Source: Escherichia coli
Lineage (GTDB): Bacteria > Pseudomonadota > Gammaproteobacteria > Enterobacterales > Enterobacteriaceae
Assembly: GCF_013122565.1 (NCBI RefSeq)
Contig: NZ_CP053258.1
Length of the DNA stretch: 64,000 nucleotides
Reading direction: 5' to 3' (one strand)
The translations under genes and the position numbers were made by a program. This document shows positions 38,718-44,366 of this stretch, piece by piece. Under the pieces are notes generated by a model that was not told the origin of the DNA, ran no database searches, and saw only the letters and a program-made list of their open reading frames with translations. Numbering within the stretch: the first letter of the stretch is position 1; each line of letters starts with the position of its first letter.

Positions 38718-39041
38718 ATGAAGTGGATAGTAATTGACACGGTAATTCAACCTACATGCGGTATATCTTTTTCAGCCATATGGGGTGATATGAAAATGAT
38801 CGTCTGGTATCAATCTACTATATTTCTCCCTCCTGGCAGTATATTTAAACCGGTTAAATCTGGTATTATCTTTAAGGATAAAGAATACCCTATTACTATT
38901 TATAACATCGCACCATTCAACAAGGATTTATGGAGTTTACTCAAAAGCAGTCAAGAGTGTCCTCCAGGAGAAAGCAAAATAACAAATAAATGTTTTCATA
39001 ATAGTTGCATTATAAAAATATGCCCATATGGGCTCAAGTAA
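38718..39041 (+). CDS. iraM: anti-adaptor protein IraM (RpoS stabiliser)
   Basis: 107-aa [15 protein letters not shown]...ICPYGLK; matches my recollection of K-12 IraM; position adjacent to icd 3' end. Confidence 0.8.
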
Positions 39042-39143: not shown

Positions 39144-40394
39144 TTACATGTTTTCGATGATCGCGTCACCAAACTCTGAACATTTGAGCAGCTTAGCGCC
39201 TTCCATCAGACGTTCGAAGTCATAAGTTACGGTCTTCGCGTTGATTGCGCCTTCCATACCTTTAACAATCAGGTCTGCGGCTTCAGTCCAGCCCATATGG
39301 CGTAACATCATCTCTGCGGAGAGAATAATAGAGCCTGGGTTAACTTTGTCCTGACCGGCATATTTCGGCGCAGTACCGTGGGTGGCTTCAAACAGGGCGC
39401 ATTCGTCACCGATGTTTGCGCCAGGGGCGATACCAATACCACCAACCTGCGCTGCCAGGGCGTCAGAAATGTAGTCACCGTTCAGGTTCATACAGGCGAT
39501 AACGTCGTATTCAGCCGGACGTAGCAGGATCTGTTGCAGGAACGCATCAGCGATCACGTCTTTAATGACGATCTCTTTGCCGGTGTTCGGGTTTTTAACT
39601 TTCAGCCACGGGCCGCCGTCGATCAGTTCACCGCCAAACTCTTCACGCGCCAGCTGGTAGCCCCAGTCTTTAAACGCGCCTTCGGTGAACTTCATGATGT
39701 TACCTTTGTGCACCAGGGTCACAGAGTCACGATCGTTAGCAATTGCGTATTCGATCGCTGCACGAACCAGACGTTTGGTGCCTTCTTCCGAACACGGCTT
39801 AATACCGATACCGCAATGTTCCGGGAAACGAATTTTCTTCACGCCCATCTCTTCACGCAGGAATTTAATCACTTTCTCGGCGTCGGCAGAGTCAGCTTTC
39901 CATTCGATACCCGCATAAATGTCTTCCGAGTTTTCACGGAAGATAACCATATCGGTCAGTTCAGGGTGTTTAACCGGGCTTGGAGTGCCCTGATAGTAAC
40001 GTACCGGACGCAGGCAGATGTAGAGATCCAGTTCCTGACGCAGGGCAACGTTCAGAGAGCGAATACCGCCACCTACTGGAGTGGTCAGCGGGCCTTTAAT
40101 GGCAACGCGATATTCACGAATCAGATCAAGGGTTTCAGCAGGCAGCCAGACATCCTGACCATAAACCTGTGTGGATTTTTCACCGGTGTAAATTTCCATC
40201 CAGGAGATTTTACGCTCGCCTTTATAGGCTTTCTCGACTGCAGCGTCGACCACTTTCAGCATGGCTGGGGTTACATCTACACCGATTCCATCACCTTCAA
40301 TGTAAGGGATAATCGGATTTTCAGGAACGTTGAGTTTGCCGTTTTGCAGGGTGATCTTCTTGCCTTGTGCCGGAACAACTACTTTACTTTCCAT
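39144..40394 (-). CDS. icd: NADP-dependent isocitrate dehydrogenase
   Basis: 416-aa ORF matching K-12 Icd; intact 3' end with no prophage junction. Confidence 0.97.
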
Positions 40395-40854
40395 TCACCT
40401 CTCCTTCGAGCGCTACTGGTTTGCTCGTCTGCCACCACGTTGCATATGCGTTTGCGTCCTGCGATACGGATGCTTTAGAGCAATTTTTTGTTAATGATTT
40501 GTAATTGGCTTGTCAATACTACCCTATTGTTTGCCGTCATGAAAGATGCGCGTTATTAGGCTATAATGCGGCAATTCATAATCTCTGAAAATACCATGCA
40601 AAAAACTTCTTTTAGACCAAAGACAGTATTTTCCCGACCTTCAAATAAAGTATTAAATATCAATTATTTACACCAGACTTTAAGCAATAAAAAAACCACC
40701 AGAGATAACTAACAGGGTGCTATTTGGTCAAAATTTGACATTACTCGATTCAGCGACTAACTCACTTTGAGCACTATTGGGAAAATTATCAAAAGTCATG
40801 GTTGAAGCGACAAGCAACGAGTAAATTATGGCATCCACCCTTTTTGAGGTTCAC

Positions 40855-40947
40855 ATGAAACGCTTTGCACTGATAGCTGTGACACTCATTGCCTTTACTG
40901 GTTCTAGTTCTGCATCTGCTGCAACCGAAGAAATCAACTTCAAGTAA
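40855..40947 (+). CDS. 30-aa mini-ORF with signal-peptide-like sequence
   Basis: ATG 40855 with GAGG SD at 5-nt spacing; MKRFALIAVTLIAFTGSSSASA-ATEEINFK; same frame as downstream 149-aa ORF, separated by two stops. Confidence 0.35.
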   Translation: MKRFALIAVTLIAFTGSSSASAATEEINFK

Positions 40948-40980
40948 CAGAAACACTATATAACAATGGAGTGTTGAAAA

Positions 40981-41430
40981 ATGGATACTACCGAAGAACG
41001 CAATGGAACATATTTCTACAGAGGACACCCGAACCTGTCCAAAATAGAACTACTCAACGTCATATTCCTTGAAGAATTCTGTAAGGAATTGGGGATTGAT
41101 TCGGTATCAGGTGCAGCAATCTTATCTGGTCAACCTTGGCTGGGTACAAGAGCGAAGCCGGAAGGGGCAACCCTGGGAACAAGTGTTGTCTCAAAGTATG
41201 CGCGTATACTGATGAGAGATGCACGCATGCCTTTTGGTATTTCTGTTCATACAACAGTGGGTGTAAGGATGCAGAAATCTAATAAGCTTGCTGCAATTAT
41301 CGCTCGTTGGGTCCCGTGGATTGGTTGGGCTTCACTGTCGATGAGTCTTTACAGGATTTCGACTCGTACCCAGGAAAAATACAATCTGATTGCCAAACCT
41401 CAAGACCGTATTAAGTGGACTTCCTTCTAA
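40981..41430 (+). CDS. hypothetical basic protein (149 aa), first gene of an islet gene pair
   Basis: ORF from track; net positive charge; AGA/AGG codons rare in backbone; stop overlaps start of next ORF (TAATG). Confidence 0.6.
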   Translation: MDTTEERNGTYFYRGHPNLSKIELLNVIFLEEFCKELGIDSVSGAAILSGQPWLGTRAKPEGATLGTSVVSKYARILMRDARMPFGISVHTTVGVRMQKSNKLAAIIARWVPWIGWASLSMSLYRISTRTQEKYNLIAKPQDRIKWTSF

Positions 41431-41765
41431 TGGCGACAACAATCACAGACGAAGTTTTAGCACTGTTCCGTGATGAGATTCCAGGTTATCAGGATGATCA
41501 CGGGAAGGAAATTCCGTTAGAACTGGACTCTGATTTGTTCGACTATCCACGAGATGATTTAGAGGACGCTATACGGAAATACAAAGAGAGGTTTGGGATT
41601 AACCTGGATAATCTGGAATGGTCTTTGTACCTTCCGTGGGAGTCTGCACCATTGCTTCAACGATGGTTCAAGCTCAAGCGGGAAGAGGTAGAAACAACAC
41701 GTTTACCGTTAACTGTACGGATGTTTGCAGAATCAGCAGAAGCGGGAAAATGGCTGTATCAGTAG
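41430..41765 (+). CDS. hypothetical acidic protein (111 aa), second gene of an islet gene pair
   Basis: ATG 41430 overlaps upstream stop (TAATG coupling); strongly acidic (MATTITDEVLALFRDEIPGYQDDHGKEIPLELDSDLFDYPRDDLEDA); track ORF begins at in-frame ATG 41415. Confidence 0.6.
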   Translation: MATTITDEVLALFRDEIPGYQDDHGKEIPLELDSDLFDYPRDDLEDAIRKYKERFGINLDNLEWSLYLPWESAPLLQRWFKLKREEVETTRLPLTVRMFAESAEAGKWLYQ

Positions 41766-41773
41766 AATAAAAA

Positions 41774-41800
41774 AGAAGGCTGCGATGCCCTTCTTATTAC
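41774..41800 (+). terminator. weak terminator-like hairpin after the islet gene pair
   Basis: AGAAGG-CTGCGATGC-CCTTCT hairpin 9 bp after stop, followed by TATTACT (poor T-run). Confidence 0.35.
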
Positions 41801-42096
41801 TGCTGATGATGGTAGTGGTAAAGCATCATCCTGAACTTAAACAGTGAAGTGCTGTCACCCATCAGTAATACAGAAACACTATTTTCATACCAGTATTTAT
41901 TCAATTCATCAATGTAAAATGTGTTCATTGGGCCATATTTATCACCATGCAGCCACACAACCGCTGCTCACTAACCCAGGTATTGATGAAACCGCGCTGA
42001 AGAGCCTGAACCCTGAACCTCTAACGAGTACCTTCAAAGTCCAATGCAATCCGACACTGTGCTAACCTCTGCGTATAGCTCTATTTGGAATTTACC

Positions 42097-42735
42097 ATGA
42101 AATACTTTAGCGATTCTAAATCTTCTTTTAGAAAAAAACAGGTTAGTCGACTAAACTCGCAACACACCACTAAGCGTAAACCTGAAAACCAGCCCACGCG
42201 TGTGATCCTGTTCAATAAACCCTACGATGTTCTTCCGCAGTTTACCGATGAAGCCGGGCGCAAAACATTAAAAGAATTCATCCCGGTTCAGGGCGTTTAT
42301 GCAGCAGGTCGTCTTGACCGCGATAGCGAAGGGTTACTGGTGCTGACCAATAACGGCGCGTTGCAGGCGCGTTTAACCCAGCCGGGCAAACGCACCGGAA
42401 AAATCTATTATGTGCAGGTGGAAGGTATTCCCACACAAGACGCACTTGAAGCCTTGCGCAATGGCGTAACCTTAAATGATGGCCCTACCCTGCCCGCAGG
42501 CGCGGAGCTGGTTGAAGAACCCGCGTGGTTATGGCCGCGGAATCCACCAATTCGTGAACGCAAAAGTATTCCCACCAGCTGGCTGAAGATCACCTTATAT
42601 GAAGGACGTAATCGCCAGGTGCGCCGCATGACCGCCCATGTTGGTTTCCCCACGCTGCGACTAATTCGCTATGCGATGGGTGATTACTCTTTGGATAATC
42701 TTGCCAATGGCGAATGGCGAGAAGTGACAGATTAA
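42097..42735 (+). CDS. rluE: 23S rRNA pseudouridine synthase RluE
   Basis: Body matches K-12 RluE ([22 protein letters not shown]...GEWREVTD); start uncertain (ATG 42097 or TTG 42085) and N-terminus may differ from K-12. Confidence 0.85.
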
Positions 42736-42744
42736 GGATACAAA

Positions 42745-44366
<1,622 letters not shown>

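Follow-up and report, generated by a model that had tools for sequence, protein, structure and literature searches.

An islet in the 5′ end of rluE in Escherichia coli appears to carry a replacement start for the gene

The window analyzed here is a 64,000-nucleotide stretch of Escherichia coli DNA (contig NZ_CP053258.1) in which rluE adjoins a foreign insertion, referred to here as the islet. Reading away from icd, the window displays a 1.7-kb gap followed by rluE, nudJ, mnmA, and hflD. The genes icd and rluE are divergent in K-12 MG1655, where 171 bp separate them, and the distance of 1.7 kb seen here compares with 200–330 bp across ~78 enterobacterial species representatives. A preliminary description of the window had placed an islet boundary inside rluE, had found the N-terminus of the protein unlike K-12 and the rest of RluE alike, and had suggested that the islet replaced the native 5′ end and promoter of the gene. 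The pairwise alignment with K-12 rluE and its upstream sequence that was proposed with that description confirms a boundary inside the gene, an islet-derived N-terminus that differs over ~27 residues, and a physical separation of rluE from its native promoter.

At base level, window positions 40318–40616 are 100% identical to K-12 MG1655, a stretch spanning all of the intergenic sequence plus the initial 51 nt of annotated rluE. Homology to K-12 picks up again at 42118, about 13 of 40 bases are unlike K-12 between 42136 and 42175, and identity is at least 96% from 42176 onward. This alignment puts one junction at 40616/40617 and the other at 42175/42176, the homologies overlapping by 15 bp, and the foreign segment between them (40617–42175) is 1,559 bp long with a GC content of 0.42, compared to 0.50–0.52 in icd, the rluE body, and nudJ. 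The left break comes after codon 7 of the true coding sequence as we define it below, and the foreign segment interrupts rluE seven codons past this start without deleting the native 5′ end. The suggested replacement is thus correct only for 42 bp of native coding sequence (K-12 residues 18–31), which are substituted by the islet; the native promoter and start are displaced rather than replaced and lie intact, 100% K-12-like, at 40539–40616, 1.5 kb upstream on the same strand, where they face the islet genes. The control region of icd is unaltered, its identity with K-12 reaching to 222 bp before the ATG of icd.

Downstream of the islet, rluE is reconstituted in frame as a 212-residue protein with an unchanged catalytic core and a different disordered, basic N-terminal tail. 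The open reading frame (ORF) 42085..42735 on the plus strand opens at TTG 42085, has an ATG at 42097, and ends with the stop at 42735, confirming the opening described earlier, and PGAP calls the 212-residue rluE from the equivalent of ATG 42097 in the carrier genomes PT62 and AREA_499. The translated protein scores 467.3 bits against the NCBIfam equivalog NF008487 for RluE, the 23S rRNA pseudouridine(2457) synthase (cut-off 284), contains the RsuA-type catalytic domain PF00849 (E = 6.3e-18), and matches PDB entry 2OLW with E = 1.8e-132; it is essentially identical to 2OLW from residue 7, and the aligned part contains the catalytic Asp motif. Compared with K-12 RluE, the first ~27 residues differ, whereas the remaining 185 (RKPENQ onward), which include the catalytic core, differ only by D145E (K-12 numbering). 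Window residues 1–27 stand opposite K-12 Met11–Arg32 and contain five extra residues (KYFSD) and 14 substituted positions, at equal net charge. Since the truncated crystallised core (PDB 2OML) corresponds to window residues 25–212, only the N-terminal tail is replaced. A context test found the downstream neighbors nudJ and mnmA retained, and the icd distance and the native N-terminal tail MQKTSFRNH... not retained. The changed context and tail concern the allele and not the membership of the protein in the RluE family.

The new 5′ end is a diverged rluE-like copy rather than arbitrary islet sequence, as indicated by its initiation region, its SFR codons, and a basic tail of equal net charge. 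The initiation region GGAATTTACCATG matches the family-conserved CTGAAAATACCATG (pattern GAAxxTACCATG), and the surrogate ATG is followed by the five extra KYFSD codons, the conserved SK(T/S)SFR codons, and a 14-codon variant tail. Both copies of the flanking direct repeat correspond to rluE codons 2–9, which explains why the repeat is present at both junctions; it is 20 bp long and imperfect, with 17 of 20 positions matching, 11 nt exact, and a spacing of 1516 bp. The patch that follows the right copy was found in none of the ~78 enterobacterial species representatives lacking the insertion, where islet-free rluE has a K-12-type tail. This absence argues that the altered N-terminus reflects neither chance nor ordinary allelic drift, that the K-12 arrangement is ancestral, and that the patch arrived with the islet. 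A protein database search with the surrogate N-terminus returned short fragments only and brought up no further type of variant. We regard the locus as an island junction of the ordinary kind that is resolved in unusual detail and overturns no existing concept; it offers a base-resolved case of an island that breaks the 5′ end of a gene yet keeps the gene through a replacement start. The positions of all features are collected in Table 1.

Table 1. Features of the icd-rluE region in the window
Feature	Position	Strand	Description	Evidence
icd	39144-40394	-		ORF list of window
Native rluE promoter, kept upstream of the islet	40539-40567	+	-35 ATGAAA, 17-nt spacer, -10 TATAAT	
Chimeric by-product ORF, native rluE 5′ fragment plus islet sequence	40566-40712	+	48 aa from Met1, 38 aa from Met11	
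Native rluE start with codons 1-7 (MQKTSFR), now displaced	40596-40616	+	100% K-12 identity	
Flanking direct repeat, left copy	40602-40621	+	AAAACTTCTTTTAGACCAAA	Repeat search
Conserved left arm, non-coding	40617-40860		~250 bp; contains palindrome GGTCAAAATTTGAC at 40726-40740	
Unannotated 39-aa ORF	40828-40947	+	Inner ATG 40855, signal-peptide-like (MKRFALIAVTLIAFTGSSSASA...)	
Cargo gene 1, STM2901-family protein	40981-41430	+	149 aa	NCBIfam NF045926, 156.8 bits (cut-off 110); PGAP in carriers
Cargo gene 2, DUF1493-family protein	41430-41765	+		Pfam PF07377, E = 1.8e-29; PGAP in carriers
Non-coding spacer, DUF1493 gene to new rluE start	41766-42084		~320-330 bp; best sigma-70 position weight matrix (PWM) score 5.3 bits	
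Hairpin, intrinsic-terminator-like on the minus strand only	41776-41791	-	No U-tract on the plus strand	Terminator scan
Surrogate rluE 5′ end from the islet	42085-42135	+	Initiation region GGAATTTACCATG, ATG 42097; includes right repeat copy	
rluE coding sequence now	42097-42735	+	212 aa	NCBIfam RluE equivalog, PDB 2OLW match, PGAP start
Flanking direct repeat, right copy	42118-42137	+	AAATCTTCTTTTAGAAAAAA	Repeat search
Variant patch in place of native NHQVKRFSSQRSTR	42136-42175	+	40 bp; came with the islet, stays as scar after islet loss	
nudJ	42745-43206	+	9 nt downstream of rluE	

The start of native rluE has to be defined before the left junction can be read. The annotated K-12 Met1 corresponds to window position 40566 and overlaps a perfect TATAAT -10 box. 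This hexamer lies exactly 30 nt upstream of Met11 (window 40596) in 77 of 78 enterobacterial species, an in-frame stop falls between Met1 and Met11 in 11 of the 78, and the NCBIfam RluE model has 206 residues, window protein residues 8–212 aligning to its positions 2–206. Because of this conservation, the upstream stops, and the length of the model, the true start is most likely Met11, giving a protein of 207 residues instead of the annotated 217, and annotation from Met1 in the K-12 style is almost certainly ten codons too long. The conserved TATAAT is best read as the -10 box of the rluE promoter. With 10 of 12 consensus positions, this promoter was the sole plus-strand match in a consensus scan of 40380–42250, and its PWM score of 12.2 bits is the best of the region; its sequence is 100% identical to K-12. 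The native start that remains behind the promoter now opens a chimeric ORF that runs into the islet and would be a by-product of the insertion. It is not conserved: AREA_499 has another C-terminus, and the Enterobacter equivalent, obtained by manual translation of the left junction described next, is 20 residues long.

The same architecture recurs in a second genus. In Enterobacter cloacae M-7 (JAALCJ010000004.1), a 13.5-kb island lies between icd and rluE at the same codon (positions 3904–17432 of locus L095). Its left junction is at the equivalent place, with the native promoter followed by ATGACGAAAATTGCTTTTAGA and then by the island. The first ~250 bp of the M-7 island are 73% identical to the left arm of the islet (z = 22.8 against shuffled sequences), and the palindrome GGTCAAA(A/T)TTTGAC is common to both left arms. 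In both cases a surrogate rluE is found at the other end, and its N-terminus in M-7 begins MSNTRKYHNNSKTSFRK, which resembles the new N-terminus in the window. The cargo is unrelated to that of the window and includes a Bor lipoprotein, a YadA-anchor adhesin, an Aca2/YdiL-like protein, and RHH proteins, encoded by genes on both strands of the 13.5 kb. Upstream of the start, no significant similarity links the two right arms (z = 1.6). A displaced native 5′ end, a conserved left arm, variable cargo, and a surrogate 5′ end are thus shared by the two loci.

Within E. coli, the islet is found at rluE in about 373–374 of 5,426 complete genomes (~7%), with lineages such as ST648 among the carriers, and rluE is annotated under the islet match in every listed match of the ~374 genomes. 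Annotators may take the islet-derived RluE N-terminus in these genomes for a mis-call. In a few carriers the islet match is split between two places or incomplete (86%, 55% coverage), which suggests that insertion sequences entered the islet secondarily or that parts of it were deleted. One non-coli Escherichia representative, Escherichia sp. E1V33, has the same islet with identical junctions. Its islet genes differ from those of the window with a dS of 0.03–0.06, compared to a dS of 0.39 for rluE, and this gap argues that the islet is much younger than the split of its hosts and moved horizontally. Vertical inheritance in Escherichia, which the uniform 95.7% identity could suggest, is contradicted by the same values. 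The divergence between E1V33 and the window steps up at 42176, and the E1V33 bases to the right of the step are those of its own clade. The rluE-nudJ stretch of E1V33 (equivalent of 42176–43100) is ~9% divergent from E. coli, and icd, the islet, and the region from mnmA onward diverge by ~1–4%; the stretch is a mosaic recombination tract, and its edge coincides exactly with the islet patch.

Two unrelated islet-free genomes, O157:H7 TR01 and HS-02, combine the native promoter and the native start with the foreign patch. The TR01 allele reads ...CTTCTTTTAGA-CC-AAAACAGGTTAGTCGAC... and the HS-02 allele ...CTTCTTTTAGA-AA-AAAACAGGTTAGTCGAC..., the junctions reading ...TTTTAGA-CC-AAAACAGG and ...TTTTAGA-AA-AAAACAGG, respectively. 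CC occurs only in the left copy of the repeat and AA only in the right one, and both genomes have the T variant that characterizes the common islet allele (AREA_499 type). As the crossover points inside the repeat differ, the simplest reading is that the two scars arose by independent islet deletions between the short direct repeats. The alleles themselves are observed; by mechanism, islet loss would proceed through recombination between the 20-bp imperfect repeats, would rejoin the native promoter and start to a full-length rluE, and would leave the 40-bp patch as a scar. These natural revertants suggest that the insertion can be undone and that its past presence stays recognizable.

How the displaced gene is expressed depends on its start and its promoter. 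The preliminary description had found no convincing Shine-Dalgarno (SD) sequence before ATG 42097. Pairing there is indeed weak (GGA, -3.3 kcal/mol), compared with -5.9 kcal/mol for nudJ and -6.7 kcal/mol for the STM2901 gene, but this is no anomaly made by the islet, since native Met11 also has no SD (+0.4 kcal/mol). A weak or absent SD is the normal condition of rluE, and ATG 42097 is a better start candidate than TTG 42085 (+0.5 kcal/mol). Translation would begin at ATG 42097 without relying on an SD, as in the native gene. Transcription most likely reaches rluE by read-through from the retained native promoter across the islet genes. Read-through is favored because the native promoter is the only strong plus-strand sigma-70 site, the islet genes are all on the plus strand, and the hairpin behind the DUF1493 gene has no plus-strand U-tract. 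The islet would thereby be spliced into the leader of an rluE-nudJ operon, nudJ being likely co-transcribed with rluE from the same promoter, and the cargo would be captured by the host promoter. For carriers, this arrangement would mean that rluE and probably nudJ are uncoupled from their native promoter or sit 1.5 kb from it, and that two cargo genes are under a housekeeping promoter. As a whole, islet insertion with a surrogate start and read-through transcription is the explanation that we consider probable.

Several points weigh against read-through, which is read from sequence. Consensus scans overlook weak or non-sigma-70 promoters, and the 41776–41791 hairpin could attenuate plus-strand transcription. 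Moreover, read-through would be impossible in M-7, so a promoter must exist near the surrogate start there, and the E. coli islet might have one too. It is a real possibility, although we lean against it, that rluE is transcribed from an islet-borne promoter in 41766–42096, that transcription from the native promoter goes no further than the hairpin, and that rluE and nudJ are fully islet-dependent, in line with the dependence on islet sequence that the preliminary description had suggested for rluE. The 13.5-kb M-7 island with its genes in both orientations, the stability of the hairpin after the DUF1493 gene, the 98.4–100% conservation of the spacer and surrogate region among E. coli carriers, and AT-rich stretches at ~41880–41940 with weak -10-like hexamers all agree with such a promoter. 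The scans agree less well, since the best spacer site reaches 5.3 bits against 12.2 for the native promoter and the consensus scan of 40380–42250 found no plus-strand sigma-70 promoter in the spacer; the T-tract of the hairpin is on the minus strand only, and a promoter module common to the E. coli and Enterobacter islands is not evident, given their unlike right arms. A more radical view holds that rluE in carriers has decayed, being poorly expressed or non-functional and hence dispensable. Separation from the promoter, a weak SD, and the mild phenotypes generally known for single knock-outs of rRNA pseudouridine synthases fit this view, which is nevertheless very improbable: between two carrier lineages, the window and E1V33, rluE has a dN/dS of 0.048 over a dS of 0.39, the frame is intact and the gene annotated throughout the listed carriers, the native gene likewise has no SD, and the aligned E. 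coli carriers (PT62 and AREA_499) are 100% identical in the surrogate 5′ end, which is also present in E1V33. The low dN/dS points to strong purifying selection that keeps rluE in carriers. The net charge of the N-terminal tail is +7 in the native protein, in the new one, and in the scar allele of HS-02, compared to +6 in that of TR01; charge and selection are the basis on which the new tail may be functionally equivalent to the native one. A passage in a 2025 review citing Tillault et al. 2018 speaks against this equivalence, stating that the RluE N-terminus contributes to substrate specificity. The naturally swapped tail represents a ready-made variant for structure-function work.

Returning to the insertion itself, its mechanism is less clear than its outcome. 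Domain searches detected no integrase, recombinase, or transposase domain in the 1.5-kb islet or the 13.5-kb Enterobacter island, and a repeat search found no terminal inverted repeats pairing the islet ends. With neither transposase nor terminal inverted repeats, the islet does not look like an insertion sequence or a transposon. A single crossover within the repeat could not have made the structure, since foreign sequence continues, as the patch, to the right of the repeat. The right boundary shared by two host species is equivocal, fitting either a fixed element end or recombination tracts that stop where homology ends; as tracts from islet-free donors would also stop there, it is no proof of site-specific insertion. 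The islet may have been imported by homologous recombination from an enterobacterium in which the architecture was already present, the limits of heterology then dictating the endpoints, or may have been inserted by a site-specific system acting in trans. Alternatively, the islet could be the decayed, integrase-less remnant of a site-specific integrative element whose attachment (att) site is the 5′ end of rluE and which carries a surrogate gene end, TR01 and HS-02 then displaying empty or excised att sites. Such an element would account for a 20-bp direct repeat exactly at both junctions, as expected of an att core, for a substitute gene end that restores the ORF (42085–42175), for precise islet-free alleles, for the M-7 island with its identical codon, different cargo, and homologous 250-bp left arm in another genus, and for an end of the foreign DNA that E. 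coli and E1V33 share to the nucleotide (42175/6). We consider it unlikely in view of the missing integrase, recombinase, and transposase domains in either island, the 40 foreign bp right of the repeat, which mean that the crossover was not confined to the core, and the two different crossover points of the scars, which fit short-homology deletion better than a fixed-core recombinase. A suspected recombinase remnant, a 54-residue ORF beside Enterobacter rluE (...ESIDRMSRQ..., a resolvase-like motif), was rejected, having no Resolvase match at E<=10. Nor did searches by exact pattern or BLAST in viral contigs, plasmids, and metagenomes yield a copy resembling a phage-borne attachment site (attP). 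An exact-pattern scan of viral contigs with the element-side motif TCTAAANCTTCTTTTAGAAAA gave 8 matches, all in unrelated AT-rich contigs without flank similarity; the left arm had one plasmid match, a 175-kb 'non-mobilizable plasmid' that resembles a chromosomal fragment and is probably mis-binned, and its motif had zero matches in metagenome contigs. Even more speculative, and doubtful as a whole, is a general model in which the first rluE codons are a recurrent insertion site in Enterobacteriaceae for integrase-less islands with a ~250-bp palindromic left arm, variable cargo, and their own surrogate rluE 5′ end, the islands entering downstream of the host rluE promoter, capturing it for their cargo, repairing the gene with a start codon of their own, exiting via the 20-bp repeats with a 40-bp scar, and depending for mobilization on a recombinase acting in trans.

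Comparison with known systems places islet insertion with a surrogate start among familiar arrangements. The prophage e14 and phage 21 use the 3′ end of icd as their insertion site and bring along a replacement for it. As at icd, the islet sits near a gene end, a diverged duplicate end restores the frame, the native end is displaced to the far side, and allelic patches mark past occupancy. In contrast to the icd elements, the islet replaces a 5′ end, which changes not just terminal residues of the protein, C-terminal ones in the case of icd, but the start codon, the initiation region, and the link to the promoter; it has no integrase, its foreign patch reaches beyond the repeat, its cargo is two small genes, and its conserved module is a non-coding arm. 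The e14 annotation is seen at icd in K-12, and in the window iraM (38718–39041) lies directly downstream of icd, indicating a strain without an e14-type prophage at the icd 3′ attachment site. Islands at tRNA and tmRNA 3′ ends share with the rluE islands the short direct repeats derived from the target gene that flank variable cargo, and the reuse of a site with unrelated cargo across genera. They differ in their target, which at rluE is a protein-coding 5′ end without an adjacent tyrosine integrase, and in their conserved module, an int-att unit rather than a 250-bp non-coding left arm. Slipped-strand or short-homology recombination, which deletes the DNA between short direct repeats, matches the two islet-free alleles, which join at different points in the 20-bp repeat, although recombinase-mediated excision would give similar products. 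The literature searched contained nothing on an islet arrangement at rluE.

The remaining features lie inside the islet. Neither the left arm nor the islet has an Rfam match at E<=1, and a promoter-like site on the minus strand of the left arm (40785–40813, TTGTCG-17-GATAAT) faces the icd control region. The 39-residue ORF at the end of the left arm has a strong SD at its inner ATG 40855 (-6.8 kcal/mol) and stays open in PT62 and AREA_499 with a 2-codon indel. It has no family match in Pfam or NCBIfam profile searches and could encode a small secreted peptide or represent a truncated first cargo gene; the idea that it is a shortened relative of the protein encoded first in the Enterobacter cargo is unsupported, BLASTP having given no alignment. 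In the spacer, two ORFs (41797–41958 on the minus strand and 41844–42065 on the plus strand) were rejected as genes because an indel breaks them in other carriers. At window ~41882, a T4 run stands against T5 in PT62 and AREA_499, and this single-base difference makes the two spurious ORFs. The DUF1493 ORF opens at GTG 41415, and PGAP places its start at 41430. The cargo has no PADLOC match as a defence system, and the searched literature is silent on DUF1493 function. Elsewhere, in E. coli E14 (positions 3789–4111 of locus L097) and a further 41 genomes, two pseudogenes directly adjoin each other, one a fragment of a distant DUF1493 paralog and the other a remnant of Hcp, the type VI secretion tube protein. 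This neighborhood hints that DUF1493 genes may belong to type VI secretion effector/immunity neighborhoods.

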